Origin: a virus
Lineage: Duplodnaviria > Heunggongvirae > Uroviricota > Caudoviricetes
Length of the DNA: 64,000 bases
Virus record (IMG/VR): IMGVR_UViG_3300031998_000043
Strand: one strand, 5' to 3'
Part shown: positions 4,261 to 62,986 of the stretch, piece after piece
Numbering within the stretch: position 1 is the stretch's first letter
How the letters are laid out: each line of letters starts with the position of its first letter
Notes under the pieces: generated by a model
Told to the model about the DNA's origin: nothing
Seen by the model: only the letters and a program-made list of their open reading frames with translations
Databases searched by the model: none
Program-made: the position numbers and the translations under genes

Positions 4261-6350
4261 TATCTAACAGGGCCAGCCGAGAATAACGACCAAGCTTTTC
4301 TGGAGTAGATACTTTCTGTAGCACCTTTAGCAGCAGATGGCATCAATTTAGCAAACTGTGTTGCAGCCTTCAATTTATGAGCCATACTACCGCCAGAATA
4401 GATTTCCTGATAGCCTACGCCACATAGAGAATCAAGCCAAGCAGCCATATTAATATCGGCAGCAAATCCAGCAGGGCCAGTTGGCACCGAAAGATATGGA
4501 TCTATATCAGTAATTGACATATTAACTTCAATCGCAGAAGCTAGACCATTGGCTGTATAGGTATTTTGATCAGGAGCTCTTCTAAAGTCGATGGTAGAAA
4601 CATATCCTTCACTGATTGTAAACATACCCGGACAGTCACATCTAATAACAAATGGAGTAGTGGCTCCATAAAAAGAAGTCTGTATAGGTAGAGAACAAGC
4701 AAGCAATGCCAAGAAGGGTTTATACACATATTCTACTAAAGACTGATAATTTCCATATGGAGATTCAAGTCTGAACGAAAGTGTATAAGATCTTGACATG
4801 TCAGAGCTTTGCCAGAACTTAGGCCAGTGCATGGTACTATTACCAATAACGGCAGAAATCGGATTCTTGGCTCCAGCCATCTTTTCTAGTCGGCCTATAG
4901 CTTTTCCAGAAAATGCCGTTCCGAAATATGAGGAAATAGTCTTTCTAAAGTTATTTACTTGATCCTTCAATCCGTCGATTGTTGACTCAAGCTGTCCACC
5001 TTCAAAACTGTTACTAGCATTCTCAGTAATAGTACAGTTTGGCCCAAGGGCTATGGCTATATGTCCCCAGCCGTTCATATTTAAACCGCCAAGCGGATCC
5101 TTTACATCATCAATAGACATAGACATAGCTGGCTTATTAGAAATTCTAGCCAGAACTTTGGCCATTAGAGCAGAATACACACGCTGAAATTTCATAGGCG
5201 TAGGTTCAAACCAACCCATACGCTTATTTTTATCAGCAGAGTATCTAACCATTTTATAGATGGCTGAATCCGTGTCAAATACAAATTCACCAGTTTCGCC
5301 TTTCTCAAAATCCTCCAATTCTTTTTCTAGCTGATAGGAGGATGTTCTAGCTTCTCTGGCTGTAAAGCCACCATACCAAAGATTTCCGGGAATGATATTC
5401 AGAACATGTGTTGTAGCCATTACATGATTATTATAATTTCTGTGCATAGGGTCTATAATCATGCTAGCAGTTGGAGGCGTGTTCATCACATAAGTTCTAT
5501 ATAAAGCAGAAGGAGTTCCTTTCATTACATCTTCTGCCTTAATATCGTAGACACGTCTGAATAAGCTAATAGCCTTTGTGAAAACCGAACCAGTAAGCTC
5601 AATAAGCTTATCTATTGCTGCAGATCCAAGAGCTTTAAGTGAGAAACCTTCTTGTACAGATAATGCAAAAGCTTCGGCTGCTGTTACCTTATCGTCAAAC
5701 CATGTTGAGAGTCTATCTGTAATAAAATCTTTCGCATTTGTAAAATCTTTAAATACAGAATCAAGGAATTTATCTTTTAATCCTCCAAGATCTACGCCTT
5801 TAAGATTTTCCATACCACCAGCAAGGCTTTGATAAACCTTGTCCACGGTCGTTCCTTCAAGAGCAGATGCGAGAGCTTTAACTTCATCAGCATTACCACC
5901 GCCTACGCCGGACTTACCAAGAAAAATGCTAAGAGCATATCCTAGACCAGTCTTAGTTCCATAGCGGTCATCTTTAAGCTTTAGATTATCCATTGCATCG
6001 GCAAAAACCTGATGATTAGCAATCTGACCATATCCAGCATTAACCATAGCGTAAAAAGCCCAGCTATCTGCAGCTCTAATGTTGGAGGTAATGTCAGCGA
6101 TACCTTGGTTTGTCTCAGACATCCATTGCAAACGCATCTGGTAATTCATCTTATTAACTGCTTTTTTACGATCTGCCCCAATATTCTCTCTACCAGTCAT
6201 ATACTCAGCCATGCTTCTATACGGGCTATTTCCGAACCCATAAGGTTCGGCCTTTGCATCTTTGGCTTTGTATTCAACATCCCAAGTTTGATTTTCCTTG
6301 ACACCATCAGCGTAAGCAATTTGTGCCCAAGTATTTGCTGTGTCTGCCAT
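4260..6350 (-). CDS. large, probably highly expressed virion structural protein (696 aa; function unknown)
   Basis: single long reverse-strand ORF with RBS AAAGAGGTATAT; GC-enriched codon usage compared with its neighbours. Confidence 0.6.
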   Translation of the reverse strand: MADTANTWAQIAYADGVKENQTWDVEYKAKDAKAEPYGFGNSPYRSMAEYMTGRENIGADRKKAVNKMNYQMRLQWMSETNQGIADITSNIRAADSWAFYAMVNAGYGQIANHQVFADAMDNLKLKDDRYGTKTGLGYALSIFLGKSGVGGGNADEVKALASALEGTTVDKVYQSLAGGMENLKGVDLGGLKDKFLDSVFKDFTNAKDFITDRLSTWFDDKVTAAEAFALSVQEGFSLKALGSAAIDKLIELTGSVFTKAISLFRRVYDIKAEDVMKGTPSALYRTYVMNTPPTASMIIDPMHRNYNNHVMATTHVLNIIPGNLWYGGFTAREARTSSYQLEKELEDFEKGETGEFVFDTDSAIYKMVRYSADKNKRMGWFEPTPMKFQRVYSALMAKVLARISNKPAMSMSIDDVKDPLGGLNMNGWGHIAIALGPNCTITENASNSFEGGQLESTIDGLKDQVNNFRKTISSYFGTAFSGKAIGRLEKMAGAKNPISAVIGNSTMHWPKFWQSSDMSRSYTLSFRLESPYGNYQSLVEYVYKPFLALLACSLPIQTSFYGATTPFVIRCDCPGMFTISEGYVSTIDFRRAPDQNTYTANGLASAIEVNMSITDIDPYLSVPTGPAGFAADINMAAWLDSLCGVGYQEIYSGGSMAHKLKAATQFAKLMPSAAKGATESIYSRKAWSLFSAGPVR

Positions 6351-15043: not shown

Positions 15044-15145
15044 ATGTTCGATGCAAACATTTCCCAAGCCGTTATAGCTTTCGCTATAGCCGCAGTCATA
15101 ATCGCTGTGTTGATTACTGATATTCGTAATCATAAGGATGACTAA
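15044..15145 (+). CDS. 33-aa hydrophobic mini-protein
   Basis: MFDANISQAVIAFAIAAVIIAVLITDIRNHKDD; a terminator follows immediately. Confidence 0.3.
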   Translation: MFDANISQAVIAFAIAAVIIAVLITDIRNHKDD

Positions 15146-15150
15146 TTAAC

Positions 15151-15180
15151 GGGGTGCTGAAGCACCCCATTTTTTTTTTA
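15151..15180 (+). terminator. rho-independent terminator
   Basis: GGGGTGCTGAAGCACCCC hairpin followed by nine T residues. Confidence 0.7.
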
Positions 15181-15201
15181 GCTTTGCTTATGGCAAAGCT
15201 A

Positions 15202-15250: not shown

Positions 15251-15427
15251 ATGACTACTGTTTTGATTGTGTGGTTAATTTTGGCCACTGCCATTTCTTG
15301 CGTATCGTTTACACTCACTGACTGGCGAACGGCAGGAGTGTCAACTGTCGTCAGACGTGTTCTGATGATTTACTTCTTCTTTCCGATCGCCATCTTCTAC
15401 GTGCTTATAACCCTCTCCAAACGCTAG
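15251..15427 (+). CDS. 58-aa membrane mini-protein with two transmembrane helices
   Basis: RBS AAGGAGTAATAC-ATG; hydrophobic throughout. Confidence 0.4.
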   Translation: MTTVLIVWLILATAISCVSFTLTDWRTAGVSTVVRRVLMIYFFFPIAIFYVLITLSKR

Positions 15428-15464: not shown

Positions 15465-15743
15465 ATGAGTGAAAAAACCTATGATACTCTACAGGTGACA
15501 AGAGTCAGTATTAATCCACGTTCTAGTGGAAAGTATATACTTGCTACAGCAAATGTAGTATTAAATGACCAGATTATTCTGCGGGGCATCAAAGTTAGAG
15601 AAGGACAGAATGGGTTTTATGTATCCATGCCTGTTGATAGACTCTCTACGGACGAAAGAGTTTTCTTTGATCCGATTACCAAAGACCTTAGAGACAATAT
15701 TGAGAATTCTGTTCTTGAAGCTTATACAAAAGGTATCACATGA
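15465..15743 (+). CDS. spoVG: SpoVG-family protein
   Basis: aligns along its full length with B. subtilis SpoVG (VTxV...AxAxVxL...IxVxxGxNGxxVxMP...DPIxxxxRxxIxxxVLxxY). Confidence 0.85.
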   Translation: MSEKTYDTLQVTRVSINPRSSGKYILATANVVLNDQIILRGIKVREGQNGFYVSMPVDRLSTDERVFFDPITKDLRDNIENSVLEAYTKGIT

Positions 15744-16498
15744 AAGCCATAGCTAACTATGAATCGGCGGCTAAAGAGATCGTGAACTGGACAAGAGAAA
15801 CGGTCGAATCCAATGGCACAAAGGATGCTGTTATCATTCTAAATGGTGATAGAGATTCCGCCATAGTCGCTAACATTCTCGTAAAAGCCTTAGGTGAAGA
15901 TCATGTACTTGGTCTAATCATGCCCTTTGAACCTTCGATGGACTGTTCGAAGACTTACATGATTGCCAGACAGGTTGGCATGAAGAAACTTAAAGAGGTT
16001 GACATTACTCTTACTACACAAGCTGCCGAGTGTACTACAAAGATAGCTTGTGATAATGAAGACATCCTCTGGGTAACTTCTGCCGACATTATTCCAAGAA
16101 CAAGAACCTTGTTAGCTCAGACGATTGCTTCCCAAATCAATGCCGTGGTTATTTCTACTTTAAACCTATCGGATTACACTATTGGGAACTTTACGCTCTG
16201 GAGTAATGTAGGTATGCTTGCTCCACTTGGAAAACTTACAAGTACAGAAGTTGCTGAACTTGGAAAGGCTTTAGGACTTCCTGATGAAATTGTTGAAATG
16301 CAGCAGTATGAAGATGCCTATGGACAAACTTCAGAATCAAAGATCGGATTCAAATACGCAGATCTTGACATGTGGATCAGAGGGGGTGATGACATTCCCG
16401 AAGGTGTCAAGAAGGTTATTGAAGACCGATTCTCGAAGTGTAGTCATAAGTGCAAGCTGATTAATATGCCAGCTTTCCATCCTGCAATTATCCAATAA
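15740..16498 (+). CDS. NH3-dependent NAD+ synthetase (NadE)-like PP-loop protein with a degenerate SGGxDS motif
   Basis: the PP-loop position reads NGDRDS; the C-terminal region DMWIRGGDDIPEGVKKVIEDRFSKCSHKCKLINMPAF parallels the E. coli NadE tail; ATGA overlap with spoVG. Confidence 0.65.
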   Translation: MKAIANYESAAKEIVNWTRETVESNGTKDAVIILNGDRDSAIVANILVKALGEDHVLGLIMPFEPSMDCSKTYMIARQVGMKKLKEVDITLTTQAAECTTKIACDNEDILWVTSADIIPRTRTLLAQTIASQINAVVISTLNLSDYTIGNFTLWSNVGMLAPLGKLTSTEVAELGKALGLPDEIVEMQQYEDAYGQTSESKIGFKYADLDMWIRGGDDIPEGVKKVIEDRFSKCSHKCKLINMPAFHPAIIQ

Positions 16499-16511
16499 AG
16501 TTGGGGGTAGG

Positions 16512-16547
16512 GTACGGTGTGTCACAGATACACCGTACTTCTTTTTT
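16512..16547 (+). terminator. rho-independent terminator
   Basis: GTACGGTGT-gtcacagat-ACACCGTAC followed by TTCTTTTTTG. Confidence 0.65.
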
Positions 16548-16552
16548 GCATA

Positions 16553-16561
16553 GTATATTAA
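16553..16561 (+). promoter_or_regulatory. GTATATTAA promoter-like motif
   Basis: 31 nt upstream of the GTG start at 16584. Confidence 0.5.
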
Positions 16562-16583
16562 GATGTGTCTATAAGGAGATGAA

Positions 16584-18264: not shown

Positions 18265-18765
18265 ATGACAGAAGAAGTATTACATGTTGGCGTGAATAAA
18301 GACTTATACATGTTCGGTGTGAATATGGCAAAGGCTGACAGTGGCTCTGAAGTTTATGCCGATATACAGAAGGCAATTCAATCCGGTATAATTCTCAAGA
18401 AAGAGAATATCCGAATTGTCTGTACTGCTATATCTGAACCAAGGATAGCTACTGGGCCTTGGTCTATCCATTCTGCCGAAGAAGTTGTTAGTGGAGACCA
18501 TTCAAATGATCAGATTACTGGAGTAGTCTTCAATACAGGCCATTACGATCTTTCTACCGTAAATACAGAAGAACGAATGTCCTTCATGAAGGGCGCAATG
18601 GAGAAATTCGGAAAGTTAGCTTTGTATGAACCTTATCACTTGGTTCCCGAAGTGATATGCAAGCCGAACTACTACTACATTGTCGCAGATCTGAACTACA
18701 AGTTCAGGTTAAAATTTGACTTTGAAAAGGAATCACCTAATGAAAATAAAGAAGATCATTCTTAA
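18265..18765 (+). CDS. hypothetical protein, the partner encoded upstream of the ABC ATPase
   Basis: 166 aa; overlaps the downstream ATPase start. Confidence 0.5.
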   Translation: MTEEVLHVGVNKDLYMFGVNMAKADSGSEVYADIQKAIQSGIILKKENIRIVCTAISEPRIATGPWSIHSAEEVVSGDHSNDQITGVVFNTGHYDLSTVNTEERMSFMKGAMEKFGKLALYEPYHLVPEVICKPNYYYIVADLNYKFRLKFDFEKESPNENKEDHS

Positions 18766-19585
18766 GAATGGTTTTATGGACTGGTACTATAACATAGATG
18801 TTTATTACAACCTATGTCTGACTGGCCCTAACGGATCCGGAAAGTCCATAATCATGTTTATGGCTAATGCCCTTATGGAATTGATCGTGACTAAATCTCC
18901 AGATGCTATTGTAAATCTTCTCTGGGATGGCGATGAGCAGAAATGGAGGAATATTGTAGACGAATTTAGAATCGAAACTGATGATGGACAGTACGCCTAT
19001 ATTAGATCTGCTGTAGTCAAGTTTGAACCTACATTCTTCTATAACATCAACGATGCTGGAGAACAAGAGCTTCCTAAGAAGACTTTTGAAAATTTCTCTG
19101 GCATTGTACCATTTCTTCCAGAAGATCGTGACTCATATTCGGGGGAATTGTTTGCGGAACTGCTAGGATACAATGACAATAGAATTCCAAAGGATATAGT
19201 TGAACGACTCTGTAAAAGCATTCTGGATAAAGAAGCCTATCCAAAGTATTTTACTCCAATGCCTATGGAGCTTTCTTTCGAGAATAGAGAGCCATGGTTG
19301 AAAGCCTTGAATAAATGGCTTAATGATGAATTCTCTCATGGCGAAAGAGAGATCGTTAGATTTGCTATGGCTATGAGCATGGCTAAAGAGACATGTGGAA
19401 TTCTGTTTATTGATAGTATTGAATGCGGATTGCACTTATTATCACAAAGACAGATCATTAATGTCTTCTTGCCATGGCTTAATGAGAATGGCATTCAACT
19501 TATCTATACCACACATTCTCCAGAATGTCTGATAAGCCAAGAAGAATGCTATAATTTGGATGAACATAGAAATACAGGAGTCTAA
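18740..19585 (+). CDS. small ABC-type (AAA_15/21-like) ATPase
   Basis: MKIKKIILKNGF N-terminus; Walker A GPNGSGKS; signature-like FSHGER; Walker B ILFIDSIECGLH; H-loop IYTTHSPE; RBS AAGGAA. Confidence 0.65.
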   Translation: MKIKKIILKNGFMDWYYNIDVYYNLCLTGPNGSGKSIIMFMANALMELIVTKSPDAIVNLLWDGDEQKWRNIVDEFRIETDDGQYAYIRSAVVKFEPTFFYNINDAGEQELPKKTFENFSGIVPFLPEDRDSYSGELFAELLGYNDNRIPKDIVERLCKSILDKEAYPKYFTPMPMELSFENREPWLKALNKWLNDEFSHGEREIVRFAMAMSMAKETCGILFIDSIECGLHLLSQRQIINVFLPWLNENGIQLIYTTHSPECLISQEECYNLDEHRNTGV

Positions 19586-34915: not shown

Positions 34916-36757
34916 TTAGTGGATGAACGTTTCCGTCGGGAGGTACGGAGAAGTACCAGCGAAGGAGTAGAAGTTCGCACTGTTGTTGGTGATCGTAACA
35001 CGACCAGCACCCGGAAGCACGTCAACGTAAGCGTAACGGCGAGAGGTGAGGATCGTCGGAACATAGGTATTTCTGGGGCTGTTGTAGCCAGAGCCAGCCT
35101 GTTCCAGCATGAAGCTGTAGGTGTACAGCTTGTAGGTCATCTGATCCTGAACAGTCGGAATGAAGAGCACACGGATGGCACCCTGAGGAATGTTCGGGGA
35201 GGACACAACCTTCCAGCTGTTGATACCCTGATACTGACCGAAGGCAATGTTAGCATTCACGCCAGCATATTCAGCCTGACCGTTGCCCTGGAACACCCAG
35301 TTGATTTCCGGCACGAGGGCGGCATCAAGCGGGTTGCAAGCAGCAACGAAGTAACCCTGTTCGTAATGGTACATGTTGATGATGCTCATGGAGAGGTGGT
35401 CGAGCACCTTGCCAAGCATCTTGGGCCATTCGGCAGGATTGAGCTGGTAGTTACCAACCGGCTTAGCAGAGAATGCACGCACGAAGTCGCCATTCGGAGC
35501 CTGTTCAATAGCGTCGTCGATAACTTCATCCATGAAGTTCACACCGTCCAAGTCCATCTTCTGAGCGAGGAAGCTAGAGAGGATTTCGACGAGCTTGGAG
35601 ACACCGTTCAGAGTGAACATACGGAGCAAGTCCGTGATGTATTCATTCGGAACCGGAGCTTCAAGGTGTTCGCCAGTACCGATGTGGATTTCCTTATCGC
35701 GGATATCGAAACCGACCTGAAGAGTGCTGTTGTTCATGACGGAGGACACGAAGGCCTTGATCATGACCCAATTCAGCTTGTCACCCTGACACATGAGGGT
35801 AAGACGACCGGACTTCACGTCAACGTCACCATACACGGAGTCCGTGAGGGTAACAATGACAGTACCAGCTTCGCCACCAACGCAAGCAGCGTCAACTTCA
35901 ACATCAACAGAGATCACACCCTTGATGCCACCACGACGAGTACCGCATTCGATCTTGCAGTTCTTGACGAGGTCATTAGCAGTGAGGGCTTCACCATTGA
36001 GGGTGAGTTCGGTAGCAAGTTCAGTAGCAACGCCATTGTAGAACACGGTGTCGCCAGCGGCAGGAGCCTTGAACTGAGCGCAAACAATAGAAACGTTCAC
36101 GTCAACTTCATCGTTGTCCTTAACCATAGCAAGAGCATCCACATACTTCTGCGTGACAGAATCAGTGTAGGTAGTCGTGGTCTTGTCATTACCGTATTCG
36201 TCCACGTCCTTACCAGTGAGGAGGTTCATGGAGAAGCAACGGTTCGTGAACTTGAACTTCACATCTTCAGCAAGGCGAACCTTAGAGACAGCGGTATCGA
36301 TGTCCATGAGGTTTTCAGGCACATAGTGCTTGTTGCCCTGAAGATCCTTCAACCACGGATGGAGGTAGTTGATGGTGAATTTCGGCTTTTCGACAGCTTC
36401 GGTCGGGAGAGCCTTGTTCATGGCAGTACGAGCCCAGCTCTTACGGAGCATCGGGGTCTGGAGGAAAGACATCGGAGCCACCGTACCGAGAGCAGCTTCT
36501 TCAAGAGCTTCGAGACGAGAGGATTCAGCGATGGTCTTGAACTGCTCGGCTTCTTCGTCATTAAGACCCTGAGCGAGCATTTCGGTGTAACGACCAAAGA
36601 GGGAGTTGTCAGACATCACATCTTTAAAGTCATCAGCATTGAACACGTTGATGTTGCTAGCGGAGAATTCTTCAGCCACTTCACGAAGAGTAGAGGTAAA
36701 GGAATCACTGCAAGCAGACACCTTCGAGGAGGGTTGCATGTAAGAAATGTTAGACAT
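34916..36757 (-). CDS. highly expressed virion structural protein (major capsid protein candidate)
   Basis: 613 aa; markedly higher GC and biased codon usage than its neighbours; RBS AAGGAAAAAGAAA-ATG; a dedicated terminator; the antisense 649-aa ORF is an artefact. Confidence 0.65.
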   Translation of the reverse strand: MSNISYMQPSSKVSACSDSFTSTLREVAEEFSASNINVFNADDFKDVMSDNSLFGRYTEMLAQGLNDEEAEQFKTIAESSRLEALEEAALGTVAPMSFLQTPMLRKSWARTAMNKALPTEAVEKPKFTINYLHPWLKDLQGNKHYVPENLMDIDTAVSKVRLAEDVKFKFTNRCFSMNLLTGKDVDEYGNDKTTTTYTDSVTQKYVDALAMVKDNDEVDVNVSIVCAQFKAPAAGDTVFYNGVATELATELTLNGEALTANDLVKNCKIECGTRRGGIKGVISVDVEVDAACVGGEAGTVIVTLTDSVYGDVDVKSGRLTLMCQGDKLNWVMIKAFVSSVMNNSTLQVGFDIRDKEIHIGTGEHLEAPVPNEYITDLLRMFTLNGVSKLVEILSSFLAQKMDLDGVNFMDEVIDDAIEQAPNGDFVRAFSAKPVGNYQLNPAEWPKMLGKVLDHLSMSIINMYHYEQGYFVAACNPLDAALVPEINWVFQGNGQAEYAGVNANIAFGQYQGINSWKVVSSPNIPQGAIRVLFIPTVQDQMTYKLYTYSFMLEQAGSGYNSPRNTYVPTILTSRRYAYVDVLPGAGRVTITNNSANFYSFAGTSPYLPTETFIH

Positions 36758-36989
36758 TTTCTTTTTCCTTATATTTTAGGTGAATTTCAGAACCAAAACA
36801 TAATGTTATCTTGGCTCTTAGACAAAATACCTATTTGTGCTAGGATCCTAGGCATTTTCAATGAATAGTTAGATGGGGGTAGAATTTTGCGAGCAAAAAT
36901 TGTAAGTTTTTTGCGTATCTAGATGTGCAACGAAAAGTATTGATTTATCGAATGAACTTTTAATAAATACGATAACCAAGGAGCCCATC

Positions 36990-53692: not shown

Positions 53693-55663
53693 ATGACAAT
53701 GAAACTTTCAGACTTGGCAGCCCGTAAAGTTTCATATCAGTTAACTAAAAATACTAGCTTTCTAAGAATGCATACATTCTTGAAAGAGAAAGGAATCAAG
53801 AACAATAAGTTCTTTCTAGTATTGTACGATAAAGACCTTGAAAATGTTGATCCACGGGCTGACAATCTCTCTAAAGAGATAAAAGCCAAGATTATTACTG
53901 AATGTAGAGTAAACCCTTGGTACTTCATCAGAGAAGTAGTAAGAATCCCTGTTCCGGGTGGTGATATTCCATACGAACTTCATCGTGGTAATCTTGCATT
54001 GAATTTTCTATCACTGAACAATATCGATACTATCGTTCTCATGCCTAGACAGCATGGTAAAACGATCGGTGCCGTGGTATTGTTTGTCTGGCTTTTCTTT
54101 TTTGGCACTAAGAACACTACTGTAACCTTCATGAACAAGAAGTACAGCGATGCTCAGGTTAACCTTAAGAGATTCAAGAATATTGTTGAACTTATTCCGA
54201 AGTGGATGATTGAACCGAGAAGTCCTAGAGAAGATCAAGAGTCTTCTACAACCTTCTCTAGAATGAATAGACTTCATAATACAATTACGGCTATGCCAGC
54301 TGCTACTTCTCCTGAAGATGCTGATAAACTTGGTCGTGGTCTTACGATGCCTTGCTGGTACTTTGACGAAATTGCGTTTGCCAAATATAATGAGATCATC
54401 TATACGGCTGCTGCTCCTGCTGTCTCTCAAGCTGCTATCGAAGCTGAAAAGACTGGAGTGCCGCACTTCAAACTGTTTACAACTACGCCTAATTCTATTG
54501 ACGTAGATGAAGGTGGTTGGTGCAAGCATGAAGTGATTGAAGCTGCTTGTGAATTTGATGAAGAGATGTACGATGTACCTCCTGAACTACTCAAAAAATA
54601 TGTGTATGATAGATCTACCAATAACTTCGTCCATATTGAATTTACTTGGAAGGAACTTGGCAGAGATGAAAAATGGTATGAACAACAGTGTAGAGATCTC
54701 CAGTACAATAGACAAAGAATCAAGAGAGAAGTGGATCTTGAATGGACGCTTTCTGCTGATAAGTCTCCATTCTCTGAAGAAGAACTTGAAAAGGTTTCTA
54801 ACTTCATTATTCCTAAAGAAAGAGAATATACTCTTCGAATTGGCGATGAAGGAAATCATAAGTTCACAGTTCTTGAGCAGATGGACTTCCATGATCCTGT
54901 AATATTGGCAGTTGACGTTGGCGGTGGACAAGGATCAGACTTCTCCGTTGTTCACATGCTTGATATTGATGACTTCCACGAGAAAGGATATTTTGCTTCT
55001 AATCGAATAAATCCCATACCATTCGCTAGAATCATTATATCAATAGTACAAAACCTATTCTATAATTCCGTTTTGATAGTGGAACGAAACAGTTATGGTC
55101 TAGATGTCATTACTACACTACTTGAAAGTAATGTAACCAGAAACAAAGTCTTCTATAGAACAATCAATAATCCTATTCCTAATCAGGGAAATAAGATTCA
55201 GAGAGTTTATGGAATTGATACTACGTCTGGATCTAGAGAAATAATGATATCTAATTGCTTTATGTATGTGGCTGATGAGCCTCATCTATTTAGATGTAGG
55301 AATACATACAATGAACTAAAGACTATGGAAAGAAAATCTAACGGAAAAGTGGAACATGCTACAGGTGCTCACGATGACTTTGTAATGTCTTTCTTGATTG
55401 GTCGCTATGGAGCTACATTTGATAGCTTTAAGATGTTCAAGAGAAGAGTATGTGCATCATCGCTTAGAGAACGCCGTAATGTTGCCGTTCAAGAAGAGAA
55501 GGAAACTACCATTAAGGACTCTGTAAGAAGTGTGGAAGAGTTCTACACCAAAGAAGACTCTAAAATGAGAAAGATCTTCTCTCTTAACTTTGATAATCAG
55601 CCGAACTCTTTACTGAAAAACAATAATAAAGGATTTGAATCATGGGTAAATACAAAGAATTAG
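53693..55663 (+). CDS. terL: terminase large subunit
   Basis: ATPase Walker A MPRQHGKT and Walker B WYFDEIAF; C-terminal RNase-H-like nuclease motifs ILAVDVGGGQGSDFSVV and TGAHDDFVMS. Confidence 0.85.
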   Translation: MTMKLSDLAARKVSYQLTKNTSFLRMHTFLKEKGIKNNKFFLVLYDKDLENVDPRADNLSKEIKAKIITECRVNPWYFIREVVRIPVPGGDIPYELHRGNLALNFLSLNNIDTIVLMPRQHGKTIGAVVLFVWLFFFGTKNTTVTFMNKKYSDAQVNLKRFKNIVELIPKWMIEPRSPREDQESSTTFSRMNRLHNTITAMPAATSPEDADKLGRGLTMPCWYFDEIAFAKYNEIIYTAAAPAVSQAAIEAEKTGVPHFKLFTTTPNSIDVDEGGWCKHEVIEAACEFDEEMYDVPPELLKKYVYDRSTNNFVHIEFTWKELGRDEKWYEQQCRDLQYNRQRIKREVDLEWTLSADKSPFSEEELEKVSNFIIPKEREYTLRIGDEGNHKFTVLEQMDFHDPVILAVDVGGGQGSDFSVVHMLDIDDFHEKGYFASNRINPIPFARIIISIVQNLFYNSVLIVERNSYGLDVITTLLESNVTRNKVFYRTINNPIPNQGNKIQRVYGIDTTSGSREIMISNCFMYVADEPHLFRCRNTYNELKTMERKSNGKVEHATGAHDDFVMSFLIGRYGATFDSFKMFKRRVCASSLRERRNVAVQEEKETTIKDSVRSVEEFYTKEDSKMRKIFSLNFDNQPNSLLKNNNKGFESWVNTKN

Positions 55664-58687: not shown

Positions 58688-61600
58688 ATGGCTGCAGATT
58701 CTCTACCGAAATATATGCACCCGCATTCGAGTGCACGTATTATCGATAATGCCGTTCTGACTGTCTCGTCTAGCGGCTTGACTAATATGTTCATTGCCCT
58801 TGAAGCTGAAAAAGGTATGCCGAATGAAGCCACTTATATCACTACTCAGAGTGAGTGGATTTTCAACTTTGGTGAACCTAACTACAGCAAATATGGTCAA
58901 GGTGCTTTGAATGCACTGAATTACATCAACGCCGGTGGTGGTGCTTGGGTGATTCGTGTTGTTCCTGATGATGAAAGATTTGCTTCTCTGTCGCTTGGCA
59001 TTGGCTTCCGCAAAGATCAGGCCTTTACTAACGATCAGGAAAAGTATCGTCGTCTTGAAATGACTTCTGAACAGATCAAGATCTGGAACGCAGCCCAGAC
59101 TGATGAAAATCAGAAGATTGCTATTGATAAGAAGTCTGGTAACTTCGCTATCATGCCTCTCTTCTACATTGAAGAAAATGGTAGCATCAATACGGCTCTC
59201 AAGCTTCAGACGATGGATGAAATTGAGCTCTACAAGCTCAAAAATAAGGATGCTAGCAAGGTTATCAATGCTGTTGCCAAGAAGAACGTGGTGACGTATT
59301 CTAATCCTTACATTGAAGTGTCCGGTGTGTTTGATCTTGGTCTGGAAAATGCTATTCCGACTAAGAAGCATAAGGCTAATCCCGCACAGCCTGAATTCAC
59401 TGAAGATGAACCGATTGAAAACGTTGCCTTCTCCAATCCGACGAATGAAACTTGTGATGCATACATTCGCATTGACAAGTACTTCGTGACTAATGGTGCT
59501 GGTGAAGCCATTATTGAAAATGGTAGAATCGCTACTTTCGATTACTACGATATGGCTAAGACCAAGGCTGCTGCCTACATTGATGACAGCACGGATGAAG
59601 AAGAGGAAGAGGATAAGCCGGAAGATCACATCTTCGCTTACTCTGCCACGATTCGTATCTATGCTAATGCTGCATCTGCTGAAGGTGAATACGGTCAGAT
59701 TATCTTTGATGTCTTGAGTAATCTCTTTGGTGCTGTTGTTGGTGCTGAAGCTCAGACCTTTATCAAGGAGCTGAACGGCAAGGCCAGCTTTGCTGACGGT
59801 ATCTACAATGGCAATAAGCACACTACGAAGTGGTTGCAGGATAACCGTAACGAGTTCTCCAATGCCAGAACCGTTTTCAAGAAAGTGAGACCTGAATCCT
59901 TCTTCGGTGGTGTTGAAAGTGAAGGTCATGTTTCTAGAATCAATACCAAGATTCTTCTCAACATTGGTACTCCTGATTCCTCGACTTGGAGCTACTCCTT
60001 CGAAGTATATAAGGAAGGCCTTGAAGGTCAGTTTATTCCTGTTCAGGCTGCTCTGATTGACAATAATACTGCCTTTACTGAAGTTGAGCTTCTGGAATGG
60101 AATGCCCTCCACGATCTCGACTACAGACTTGGTGGAAAGGCTGATGAAGAATTCCCCGATGAATATGTCATTGGTGAAGGTCAGATCAACCTCGTTAATC
60201 GTGAAGCTACCACTGGTGCTACCAAGAATTCTGTGCTTTACTATGTGAAGTACATCACCAGCAATGAGCCGGTCTACTCGACCTCGATTACGATGGCTGA
60301 GGCTTACAGATTCAATCGTGTTAAGGCTAACTCTGAAGATGAAGTTTGTTCTCTCTCTTCTGAAGCTACCTTTGCACCTACTTCGATGAATACGAAGTAT
60401 GCTAGCCTCCTTAACACTAAGGCTGCTTTCAGTGCAGACGTTAGCACCGATATCCATTGGCAGATCGATCAGGGTAGCATTGAAGATGTCCTGACTCGTG
60501 TTGAAGCTATTGAGTACGTCAATTTCTTCTACAATACTCCGGGTCTGATTTCTCTTGAAGCTCATACCTCTGGTGGTGAAGAACTTGTTGATGTTACAAT
60601 CGATACTTCTGCTGTCATTACGGAAAGTGCATACAATTCCATCAAGGATACTTCCCTCGGTAATCTCTTTGAAAAAGTTAGTGCAGGTGTCGAAGATGAT
60701 GAAGGTGATGAACTGACTGATGAAAATAGCGAAGCCATCACTAACGAAGATTACGAAGAAGGCACTGTTACCTATACTCTTAGGAAGAACATCGAAGCTT
60801 CTGAACTTCCGTTCAGCTTTGTTTCCAAGGTGCTTGTTGGTGGTTGTCTCCAGCCTGTTACTATCAATAACATTCCCGTGACCAAGACTCTGTCTTTGCT
60901 CATCAAGGGAAGAGAGTCTGGTAAGGCTGAACTTGACACTGCCCGTCCTGATGGTAATGCTTATGGCGATCCGTACTACTTCGAATTTGCCAATGCTACA
61001 GTATTGCTCTCTGGTATTGATTCCTTGACTGGTTTCAATGGCACGTTTGCTCTGCACTTTGTTTCTGACTCTATCGAAAACCTTGCTCTCAAGGCTTACG
61101 ATATTGCTGTCATGGATGAAGCTACATCGATCACTGCTAGCCAGATTCCTGGTGAGAAAGTCGCATATGTCAGATTCTATGACAACTTTGATGGTTCTAT
61201 CTTTGAACCTAACTATGACTATATTGAACGCGTCTATGACACTGTTGGTCTTGTAACCACTACGTTCACTTCTTATGAACTTGAAGAGAAGGTCTATTCT
61301 CCCTACACCATCATTGATGGTATCAAGATTAAGAATACTGAAGTATGGAACAACATTGACGAAGCCAAGGAAGGCTATGTCATTGGTGCAGCTCGTGACG
61401 AGATCACCGATGTCGATATTCAGGAAATGAAGCTCGACAAGACCTGCGTCGCTGAGTTCTGTCGTTTCTTGCCTAAGGGTTCCGGTAAGTGGTACAACCG
61501 TCTTGGTGTGTCGCTCTCCTATGACGATAACTATGATGGAACGTATCCGGATTGGAGCATGTTCAAGCTCACTATCTTCGAAAGAAGCAATGGTGAAGAG

Positions 61601-62986
61601 ATCTCTCGCGAACAGTTTGCTGTCGCTTTGGATCCTGATGCTGTGTCTGCTACCAAGGAAAGCCTCTTCATTGAAGATGTCGTTAACACCTACTCGTCTT
61701 ACCTGACTTGTGTGGTGAACTACGATAACCTCCAGAACTTTGTTGAAACCAAGCTTGCCGTTAAGGATGATGCTGGTAAGGTTGTGGAAGATGAAGATGG
61801 TAATGAAATCTTGGTTAAGGTTGATACCGTTATCAAGTACATCTTCAACCGCATCGATCTCGATGACTTCAACAAGAGAACGTTTGGCGACGATTACCAG
61901 ACCAACGAGTACAGTAAGTATGCTTTCACTTCGCTCATGAGCGTGACTGGCGTTGATGAAGAGGGTTGTGCCTTTGATACTTCTCGCTACAATAGTGATA
62001 GCCTCTATGAATATACTGAACCGTTCAATTCCTTCTGGATCTTCAACACTGTCTCTGCTGCTGCTTCCCTCTACTTGGGTGGTGGTTCTTATGGCAATGG
62101 TTGGGAACATGCCTATGAAGATGAGGAAGGTAATCCTCAGTACACGAGCTCCTTGACTCAGGCTCTCGTAAGGGCTTACAGTGGCGTGACGGATCCGTTC
62201 ATCACGAACACGAACCTTTGCGAATTCGACCTTATGTTCGATGCTAACTACGATACCGATGTTCGCACGGCTATGACTAAGCTGGCCTCTGAAACTCGTC
62301 AGGACTGCATTGTCTTGCTCGATCAGGGTCTGTCTATTGCCAATGCTACTCAGGCTATTGACAAGAGAAAGAACGAAGAAAACTTCGATACCTTCTATGC
62401 TGCTCTCTTCACCCAGCATCTTGTGGTGAGCGATGTGTGGTCTGGTAAGGTCATTAAGGTTACTCCGACATTCTTCCTTGCTTCCAAGATTCCTTCGAAC
62501 GATACCGCTAACGGTAAGACGATGAACTTCGTTGGCCCCCGTCGTGGTACGATCGGTGGGTTCCGCAGCATTTCGTATATGCCTACGGCTTATGAAATGA
62601 GCGAACTCTACAAGAATCAGGTGAACTACATCGAACGTGATGCTCTCGGTGTGTTCTTCGCTACTGAGCTTACCACTCAGGTTAAGAATACTCCTCTCAC
62701 GTTGATCCATGCTGTTCGTGCTATCTTGTCTCTGAAGAGAGACTTCCTGAAGATTAGCCGTAACTACCGTAGTGAATATGCTACTGGTGCTGTTCAGGCT
62801 AACTTGATGGGCGAACTCAACGCATGTGCTGCTGAATACATCCTTCAGGGTGCGTTCAAGTACATCACGCCGAAGATTGCCTCTACGGACTACGATGTCC
62901 AGCAGAGAATCTGCCGCATTGATGTATCTGTGGCCTTCGTTGACATCATGGAACGCTTCGTGTTCTCCTTCGTTGTTGAACGCTAA
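58688..62986 (+). CDS. tail sheath protein (giant, 1432 aa)
   Basis: the N-terminus SEWIFNFGEPN...ALNYINAGGGAWVIRVV parallels T4 gp18 (VDLVNTFGQP...AMNFLQYGNDLRVVRAV); RBS CAAGGAGGCCAATA-ATG; GC-enriched. Confidence 0.75.
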   Translation: MAADSLPKYMHPHSSARIIDNAVLTVSSSGLTNMFIALEAEKGMPNEATYITTQSEWIFNFGEPNYSKYGQGALNALNYINAGGGAWVIRVVPDDERFASLSLGIGFRKDQAFTNDQEKYRRLEMTSEQIKIWNAAQTDENQKIAIDKKSGNFAIMPLFYIEENGSINTALKLQTMDEIELYKLKNKDASKVINAVAKKNVVTYSNPYIEVSGVFDLGLENAIPTKKHKANPAQPEFTEDEPIENVAFSNPTNETCDAYIRIDKYFVTNGAGEAIIENGRIATFDYYDMAKTKAAAYIDDSTDEEEEEDKPEDHIFAYSATIRIYANAASAEGEYGQIIFDVLSNLFGAVVGAEAQTFIKELNGKASFADGIYNGNKHTTKWLQDNRNEFSNARTVFKKVRPESFFGGVESEGHVSRINTKILLNIGTPDSSTWSYSFEVYKEGLEGQFIPVQAALIDNNTAFTEVELLEWNALHDLDYRLGGKADEEFPDEYVIGEGQINLVNREATTGATKNSVLYYVKYITSNEPVYSTSITMAEAYRFNRVKANSEDEVCSLSSEATFAPTSMNTKYASLLNTKAAFSADVSTDIHWQIDQGSIEDVLTRVEAIEYVNFFYNTPGLISLEAHTSGGEELVDVTIDTSAVITESAYNSIKDTSLGNLFEKVSAGVEDDEGDELTDENSEAITNEDYEEGTVTYTLRKNIEASELPFSFVSKVLVGGCLQPVTINNIPVTKTLSLLIKGRESGKAELDTARPDGNAYGDPYYFEFANATVLLSGIDSLTGFNGTFALHFVSDSIENLALKAYDIAVMDEATSITASQIPGEKVAYVRFYDNFDGSIFEPNYDYIERVYDTVGLVTTTFTSYELEEKVYSPYTIIDGIKIKNTEVWNNIDEAKEGYVIGAARDEITDVDIQEMKLDKTCVAEFCRFLPKGSGKWYNRLGVSLSYDDNYDGTYPDWSMFKLTIFERSNGEEISREQFAVALDPDAVSATKESLFIEDVVNTYSSYLTCVVNYDNLQNFVETKLAVKDDAGKVVEDEDGNEILVKVDTVIKYIFNRIDLDDFNKRTFGDDYQTNEYSKYAFTSLMSVTGVDEEGCAFDTSRYNSDSLYEYTEPFNSFWIFNTVSAAASLYLGGGSYGNGWEHAYEDEEGNPQYTSSLTQALVRAYSGVTDPFITNTNLCEFDLMFDANYDTDVRTAMTKLASETRQDCIVLLDQGLSIANATQAIDKRKNEENFDTFYAALFTQHLVVSDVWSGKVIKVTPTFFLASKIPSNDTANGKTMNFVGPRRGTIGGFRSISYMPTAYEMSELYKNQVNYIERDALGVFFATELTTQVKNTPLTLIHAVRAILSLKRDFLKISRNYRSEYATGAVQANLMGELNACAAEYILQGAFKYITPKIASTDYDVQQRICRIDVSVAFVDIMERFVFSFVVER

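Follow-up and report, generated by a model that had tools for sequence, protein, structure and literature searches.

Does a phage protein that has the fold of an NH3-dependent nicotinamide adenine dinucleotide (NAD+) synthetase, NadE, still make NAD+ when the signature of its active site is altered? The question is raised by a locus in the IMG/VR virus record IMGVR_UViG_3300031998_000043 (Caudoviricetes), in which the gene of a 252-amino-acid (aa) NadE-like protein overlaps that of a 92-aa SpoVG-like protein. The stretch of this record that we analysed, 64,000 nucleotides (nt) long and referred to here as the window, most likely comes, to judge from its genes, from an uncultivated jumbo phage that is AR9-like and infects a Firmicute, with the gut as its probable habitat. 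NAD+ metabolism is a main battlefield of phages against bacterial immunity, and phage NAD genes are usually read as encoding NAD+-replenishing enzymes. A preliminary description of the locus had left the choice between a divergent NadE that still supplies NAD+ and a pseudoenzyme. We favour the pseudoenzyme because of the loss of catalytic constraint across the clade to which the protein belongs and the loss of NAD gene context. Judging from the sequence comparisons below, the 252-aa protein probably has no role as an NAD+ synthetase and is, in evolutionary terms, a pseudoenzyme.

The open reading frame (ORF) of the 252-aa protein occupies positions 15740..16498 of the plus strand. Its earlier assignment to the NadE family is borne out by family models, solved structures and the predicted fold. 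The protein matches PF02540 (NAD_synthase) over model positions 3-238 of 242 with E=1.1e-31 and 110 bits (threshold 21), and TIGR00552 (nadE) with E=8.6e-35 and 120 bits (curated cut-off 63.65); the full-length equivalog models PRK13980 (108 vs 255) and PRK00768 (53 vs 250) are not reached. The solved NadE 2E18 was matched with E=1.4e-22 at 28% identity. An AlphaFold2 model, built on a multiple sequence alignment made up mostly of canonical NadEs, had a predicted local distance difference score of 89.4 and a predicted template modelling (TM) score of 0.88, and the top 50 fold matches in the PDB were all NAD synthetases (TM 0.7-0.88). Like the canonical enzymes (PF02540/TIGR00552), represented by P. 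horikoshii PH0182 (2E18) and the Bacillus subtilis enzyme (1NSY/1EE1), the phage protein shows the full-length fold (TM 0.83-0.88) in a single domain of about 250 aa, together with the R-x-R and N-x-S motifs, G149, the E199...G203..Y206 pattern and a C-terminal H-K. The preliminary description had named a better fit to another PP-loop family, such as QueC, as the result that would speak against NadE. QueC gave only a marginal match (E=0.04), and the same held for the tRNA-thiolase and asparagine-synthetase-type families. GMP synthase was also rejected, the C-terminal domain of guaA matching with E=4e-6, far under its cut-off. Chance could not account for the matches to NadE, nor for those of the partner protein to SpoVG given below.

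The PP-loop itself is degenerate, as had been noted earlier. In alignments to the solved NadEs 2E18, 3FIU, 3P52, 1XNG and 1EE1, the residues NGDRDS (aa 35-40, codons at 15842..15859, +) fall column for column on the canonical SGGxDS. An exhaustive HMMER search of 1.84 billion representative sequences yielded 3,338 relatives, and the 150 best of them were surveyed for this loop. S-G-G-x-D-S was present in 147 of the 150; within these, Ser and the first Gly were invariant (147/147 each) and the third-position Gly was found in 146/147. The exceptions nearest to the phage protein are its own relatives: P0001 (98% identity) with NGDRDS, P0002 (65%) with NGDRDA, P0003 (37%) with DGEKNS and P0006 (35%) with NSNRAN. 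A further 52 homologues came from a profile-based search of 5.8 billion proteins, and all of these are canonical at about 25 key positions.

The changes extend well beyond the loop. With reference to B. subtilis NadE, S46 corresponds to N35, G48 to D37, N133 to D116, Y144 to Q127, E162 to D145 (Glu in 97% of the family), F167 to N150 and D173 to N156 (Asp in 93%), whereas D50 (D39), S51 (S40), R137, R139 and T157 are kept. D50, E162 and D173 are the residues that we take to be the Mg2+-binding and catalytic acids, of which the phage protein thus keeps one (D39) and has changed two (D145, N156). In the flexible loop the conserved Pro, Gly and Asp have become Q189, D192 and S198, so that the phage protein differs from NadE at the conserved Asn116, Tyr150, Pro189, Gly192 and Asp198 as well as in the loop and the two acidic positions. 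The replacement of K186 by S168 was considered as a further catalytic loss and rejected; this Lys is absent across the whole SGGKDS subfamily, which probably uses the loop Lys in its place.

One of these substitutions has a precedent in the nit11 allele of Salmonella typhimurium, which carries the same Ser-to-Asn change (S48N) at the first residue of SGGxDST; the mutation raises the Km for NH3 about 70-100-fold and causes a growth and nitrogen-assimilation phenotype (PMC3376133). Whereas nit11 is a single laboratory mutation that leaves the enzyme crippled but active, the phage protein combines this change with many further active-site changes and is evolutionarily stable.

Conservation was then scored over 26 columns, each at least 93% conserved in canonical NadEs. 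The median number of columns kept is 26 in canonical proteins, as against 17 in the phage protein, 15 in P0002, 14 in P0003 and 11 in P0006. Only 6 of the 26 columns (23%) are identical among the four clade lineages, compared with 14% of ordinary columns. Because the lineages carry different residues at the catalytic sites, loss of catalytic constraint is the simplest explanation, and the emergence of a new catalytic motif is less likely.

The proteins with the altered loop form a small phage clade of four lineages, and the ORF is intact in all of them. The clade (five sequences) was recovered as monophyletic in 59/60 neighbour-joining bootstraps; when the conserved and catalytic columns were left out, this fell to 35/60, with P0006 outside the clade in the remainder. 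Its members have in common several residues that canonical NadEs seldom or never show, namely K2, I4, Y7, K82 (in a 1-aa insertion), L91, K205 and H247. The gene in the window differs from that of the 98% relative (contig L002) by 15 synonymous and 5 non-synonymous changes, corresponding to a ratio of non-synonymous to synonymous substitution rates (dN/dS) of 0.09; comparison with the 65% relative, for which synonymous sites are saturated, gives a dN/dS of about 0.06. Judged by these ratios, the NadE-like gene is under strong purifying selection and is no pseudogene. The protein therefore combines the features of a pseudoenzyme: it is clearly homologous to an enzyme family but lacks residues that catalysis requires, and its ORF is intact and under purifying selection across diverged lineages. 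A homologue with a canonical loop, P0004, shares the local indel architecture of the clade and is likely its functional sister. A scan of IMG/VR for the clade returned only the jumbo-phage contig of P0006, where the protein is annotated as 'NAD+ synthase' by JGI; a second ORF of 258 aa at that locus was considered as a NadE paralogue and is not one.

The gene neighbourhood points in the same direction. P0004 is preceded by genes for an NMNAT-Nudix protein and an isochorismatase-type nicotinamidase, P0005 follows NAPRTase in a bacterial contig, and the homologue of phage Phass-1 (OQ749652) follows nicotinamidase, PRPP synthase and NAMPT; all three have SGGxDS loops. Among the 89 ORFs of the 64-kb window, in contrast, no other NAD-pathway family was found, and nicotinamidase, NAPRT/NAMPT, NMNAT and PRPP synthase partners are all absent. 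The NadEs of Phass-1 and P0004, which stand in Preiss-Handler-type clusters, are the closest canonical relatives (32-37% identity) and likewise come from gut phages. They differ from the protein studied here in having SGGKDS or SGGTDS loops with all invariant columns kept, and in lying beside salvage genes and not beside SpoVG. The known phage NAD+ reconstitution pathways NARP1, NARP2 and NARP3 are active and multi-enzyme, and none includes NadE (PMC13464706). They resemble the present case in that phage genes derive from NAD metabolism, and they matter in the conflict with NAD-depleting immunity (PMC13464706), whereas the window encodes a solitary NadE homologue whose active site has decayed.

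Some features of the canonical phage NadEs deserve separate mention. In Phass-1 (L003, 93037-101759), nicotinamidase, PRPP synthase, NAMPT, a hypothetical gene and NadE follow one another in a complete-looking Preiss-Handler-type cluster, and a further gut-phage example (L014/L015) has NMNAT-Nudix, isochorismatase and canonical NadE in L014. This NadE-containing route is not among the published NARP1-3 pathways. The cyanomyovirus 'NAD synthetase' genes, with canonical SGGIDS loops (for example in Prochlorococcus phage P-TIM68, L006, 153685-162416), sit among epimerase, glycosyltransferase and methyltransferase genes and not among NAD genes, a context that hints at sugar amidation instead of NAD+ synthesis.

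The 92-aa partner (15465..15743, +) is a phage-type protein of the SpoVG fold. As had been reported, it aligns with SpoVG along its full length: PF04026 is matched over model positions 2-81 of 82 (E=4e-16, 59.4 bits; gathering cut-off 29.6), and the solved SpoVG structures 2I9X, 2I9Z and 2IA9 are matched with E of about 1e-6. The preliminary description had also called it an RNA/DNA-binding regulator of sporulation and septation. The SpoVG fold is sound, but this functional label over-reaches. The NCBIfam equivalog model NF009749 is not reached (46.3 bits vs a cut-off of 108), and the doublet K50-R51 of Staphylococcus aureus SpoVG, each residue of which is needed for DNA binding (PMC3688583), reads D58-R59 in the 92-aa protein. 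A regulator function is therefore not established for it. With the SpoVGs of S. aureus, B. burgdorferi and L. monocytogenes it has in common the fold across the 80-residue domain and the conserved P-I/T...R helix region; unlike them, it is phage-encoded, scores below the equivalog level, carries the D58-R59 doublet and lacks the yabJ/glmU-prs context.

The altered doublet is a property of a wider group. Its first position is Asp in 69/85 phage-type SpoVGs and its second is mostly Tyr or Phe, so that [YMF]P-x-D-[YF/R]-K replaces the bacterial MPS-K/R-K/R; the nucleic-acid-binding mode of this subfamily, if it has one, may differ from that of bacterial SpoVG. An earlier bioinformatic survey already listed spoVG in gut phages (PMC10294663), with no NadE partner beside it. 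In rumen and gut contigs (L021-L100), phage-type SpoVG genes lie directly upstream of genes for ComM/YifB-like Mg-chelatase AAA+ ATPases, ArdC-like (ArdcN plus zincin) anti-restriction proteins, or a pentapeptide-repeat plus DUF5758 protein; examples of such neighbours are L043:3292-4821, L061:1064-2587, L034:4052-4909, L040:3411-4373 and L053:586-1509. Many of these SpoVGs are extended at the C-terminus by about 66 aa and are accompanied, roughly 1 kb upstream, by a second SpoVG paralogue. ComM-like, ArdC-like and pentapeptide-repeat genes would be typical of those parts of mobile elements that serve early entry or anti-defence. The company they keep suggests that SpoVG-fold proteins commonly belong to the early or anti-defence regions of such elements.

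The two ORFs of the locus join in an ATGA overlap (15740..15743, +), as had been described, a geometry typical of translational coupling. The junction reads ...ATCACATGAAAGCC, the ATG of the NadE-like gene overlapping the TGA of SpoVG, and a Shine-Dalgarno-like AAAGG lies about 10 nt 5' of it. Three lineages carry the pair. Its ORFs overlap in all of them, sharing 4 nt in the window and in L002, 17 nt in L001 (the contig of the 65% relative) and 56 nt in L007/L008, while the proteins diverge to 37% (NadE-like) and 44% (SpoVG) identity. A terminator-like hairpin of 14 pairs followed by a T-run (16510..16549, +) begins 12 nt 3' of the NadE-like stop codon and would close the transcription unit; it is identical in L002, and a different hairpin with a T-run stands at the equivalent place in L001. 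On the 5' side the unit is delimited by two terminator-like hairpins (15151..15201, +). Because this overlapping, terminator-bounded arrangement has been kept over a large divergence, we tentatively suggest that the NadE-like protein acts together with the SpoVG-like protein. The combined statement, a NadE-derived pseudoenzyme acting with a SpoVG-like protein, is the reading to which we incline, with confidence a little above even.

Between the upstream terminators and SpoVG lies a hydrophobic ORF of 58 aa (15251..15427, +), possibly the first gene of the unit; its membership is uncertain, and no gene was called at that position in L002 or L001. Another hydrophobic ORF, of 33 aa (15046-15146), lies further 5' of SpoVG and was called in both L001 and L002. 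A scan for sigma-70 promoters was at chance level, giving 7 where 6.8 were expected. Since AR9-like phages rely on RNA polymerases of their own, a sigma-70 scan is inappropriate and such promoter scans are uninformative. Directly 3' of the terminator, about 20 nt before the ribosome-binding site of the next gene, is the 14-mer TAGTATATTAAGAT (16551-16564). It is kept in the 65%-identity relative (L001, about 4395-4410) and may be a phage promoter element; its repeats in the window were not significant, with 3 matches at up to 2 mismatches, a number equalled in 16 of 100 shuffles.

Several observations weigh against a catalytically dead NadE that works with SpoVG. D39, S40, R120, R122, T140, N142, S144, G149 and E199 are retained, so that residual nucleotide binding or weak catalysis is possible, and the Salmonella S48N enzyme is still active. 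The clade is represented on a handful of contigs only, which makes the statistics of selection and covariation thin. The pairing is also lineage-specific: no SpoVG lies beside the NadE-like gene at the P0006 jumbo-phage locus, the fourth lineage, and 79 of 80 further phage-type SpoVG loci (38-47% identity) have no NadE-like gene within 3 kb, the sole exception being the P0003 contig again. It is confined to related, syntenic phages whose flanking gene order is common to the three lineages, and since only these carry it, the pair could be an inherited gene order without functional coupling. Finally, early expression is deduced only from the position of the unit among small same-strand genes. 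At the P0006 locus, a 100-aa ORF upstream was considered as a hidden SpoVG; it encodes a membrane, Cys-rich protein with no SpoVG match. A scan of IMG/VR for SpoVG gave four distant loci.

If the protein were a divergent but active NAD+ synthetase, amidating nicotinic acid adenine dinucleotide (NaAD) to NAD+, the phage could resist NAD-depleting defences of the Thoeris, DSR or SIR2 type. This reading is consistent with the full-length NadE fold, with the retention of D39 and S40 in the loop, of both Arg residues of R-x-R, and of T140 and E199, with the activity of Salmonella S48N at raised Km (PMC3376133), and with the occurrence of NadE inside NAD-salvage clusters of other gut phages. We nevertheless regard it as highly improbable. 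About nine of the 26 near-invariant columns are changed, including the introduction of an acidic side chain into the pyrophosphate-binding loop (G to D) and a D-to-N change in the catalytic site; the lineages differ at these columns, and sister loops such as NSNRAN and DGEKNS are incompatible with a conserved catalytic mechanism. Furthermore, the window holds none of the salvage partners listed above, and NadE alone could not rebuild NAD+ from the ADP-ribose (ADPR) and nicotinamide left by NADases. The earlier proposal that the protein still supplies NAD+ is thus not supported. It is also quite improbable that the NadE scaffold has been remodelled into an enzyme for another reaction or substrate, perhaps a nucleic acid or nucleotide supplied by SpoVG. 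Strong purifying selection, clade-invariant residues that include the basic K2, K28, K82, K205, R214, R230 and H247, and the adjacent protein of a nucleic-acid-binding family would agree with such an enzyme, as would the fact that RNA or nucleotides are common substrates of PP-loop enzymes. However, the four lineages have no new active-site motif in common, their former catalytic columns vary freely, and PP-loop chemistry needs a Gly-rich loop for the ATP pyrophosphate, where Asp, Glu or Asn is found here.

A special case of the pseudoenzyme reading places the protein in NAD-centred immunity, where it would sequester glycocyclic ADP-ribose (gcADPR), ADPR, NAD+ or NaAD, act as a decoy or inhibitor of a NADase effector, or poison the host NadE through mixed dimers. 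In the ancestral enzyme, the pocket for an adenine dinucleotide lies at the dimer interface (1NSY, 1EE1), and R122 and T140 on the adenine/ribose side are largely kept, whereas phosphate, Mg and catalytic residues are lost; the gene also lies amid small, early-looking genes, and phage-type SpoVG is found elsewhere directly upstream of ArdC-like, pentapeptide-repeat and ComM-like genes. Yet the equivalents of the NaAD site are degenerate too (B. subtilis Y144 is Q/Q/S/N in the clade, F167 is N/N/Y/N and T169 is T/V/H/I), which weakens the simple idea that the protein keeps binding NaAD or NAD. Mixed dimers with the host NadE are doubtful because the dimer-interface helix is changed. Neither protein matched a PADLOC family, and the papers found describe nothing similar. 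We therefore consider this role improbable, and slightly less likely still its explicit form, in which the dead NadE keeps the adenine-dinucleotide pocket or the dimer interface, sequesters an NAD-derived immune signal or substrate or blocks an NAD-targeting effector or the host NadE, and is co-produced with the phage-type SpoVG, a protein whose genes in other mobile elements stand in an anti-restriction-like neighbourhood.

Another possibility is that the dead NadE has a role of its own and that its adjacency to SpoVG reflects inherited synteny only, SpoVG being independent as in most phages. The 79 SpoVG loci lacking a NadE-like neighbour, the P0006 lineage with a NadE-like gene and no adjacent SpoVG, and the common flanking gene order all fit this explanation. 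It accounts less well for an overlap found in every pair-bearing lineage despite 37% and 44% identity and saturated synonymous sites, and for the bracketing of the pair by terminators. We consider it unlikely, though far from negligible, and the pseudoenzyme status would hold even if it were correct. The coupling of NadE with SpoVG, called unusual at the outset, is indeed so, with a NadE-like neighbour at 1/80 other phage-type SpoVG loci, and may partly reflect the synteny of related phages.

Genes for a large terminase, a tail sheath and a DNA polymerase are present in the window along with numerous small ORFs on the same strand, and the guanine-plus-cytosine content is about 39%. It was assigned to an AR9-like jumbo phage because its large terminase (53693-55663) shares 41-42% identity with its counterparts in the Bacillus jumbo phages AR9, PBS1 and Goe21; identity to those of Staphylococcus jumbo phages is 33%. 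The phage may thus possibly have deoxyuridine-containing DNA (dU-DNA) and multisubunit RNA polymerases. A megablast search of the region against 50,697 phage records gave zero nucleotide matches; human-gut and rumen-type metagenomes are the source of the relatives. Neither the NadE clade nor phage-type SpoVG turned up when 185,579 reference genomes were scanned, so no host could be assigned via prophages.

Other features of the window lie apart from the locus. An ABC-type AAA_21/AAA_15 ATPase (18716-19585) resembles the defence ATPases AriA, AbiLi, PtuA and GajA (best E=1.7e-14) and is kept in the 98% relative L002. Two stop-free antisense frames are unusually long: one of 1335 aa (58703-62710, -) opposite a 1432-aa tail-sheath-like ORF (58688-62986, +), and one of 613 aa (34916-36757, -) opposite a 649-aa ORF (34919-36868, +). 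Further family matches among the 89 ORFs include Stealth_CR2 (E=3e-33), RusA, SPFH/Band 7 plus flotillin, a calcineurin-like phosphoesterase, Phage_base_V and DUF5662.

Returning to the NadE-derived pseudoenzyme, we propose the following history. Its ancestor would have been an NH3-dependent NAD+ synthetase that belonged to the SGGKDS subfamily and was encoded by a phage, in a NAD-salvage cluster of the nicotinamidase/NMNAT type. In the AR9/PBS1-like jumbo-phage lineage of gut and rumen Firmicutes, the partner NAD genes would have been lost, as would the constraint on the ATP-pyrophosphatase and adenylation residues. As the fold has been kept under strong purifying selection, it was presumably retained for a new, non-catalytic job. 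The protein would be made early in infection from the short terminator-bounded unit, translationally coupled to the SpoVG-fold protein, so that both might be present in fixed proportion as a joint host-takeover or counter-defence module. The dead NadE would serve as a binding or scaffold subunit and not as an enzyme, and NAD+ would not be replenished. In this scheme, the absence of catalytic activity, the partnership with SpoVG, whether physical or functional, and the early timing are what we infer.

In the searchable literature, neither a degenerate phage NadE nor a SpoVG/NadE pair was found to be described. NadE, SpoVG and pseudoenzymes are themselves known, and the degenerate clade is rare, with four lineages on a handful of contigs. 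The case indicates that phage NadE annotation can mislead: a jumbo-phage clade has lost the catalytic signature and the salvage context and would have kept the protein for another purpose beside a SpoVG-fold protein. Automated 'NAD+ synthase' labels on such proteins, like that given by JGI to P0006, therefore call for caution. If the counter-defence role were true, the protein would represent a new class of anti-defence pseudoenzyme and provide the first function for a phage SpoVG. More generally, if a function is found, it would document the conversion of a core metabolic enzyme into a non-catalytic viral factor and would offer a handle on the widespread, unstudied family of phage-type SpoVG proteins.

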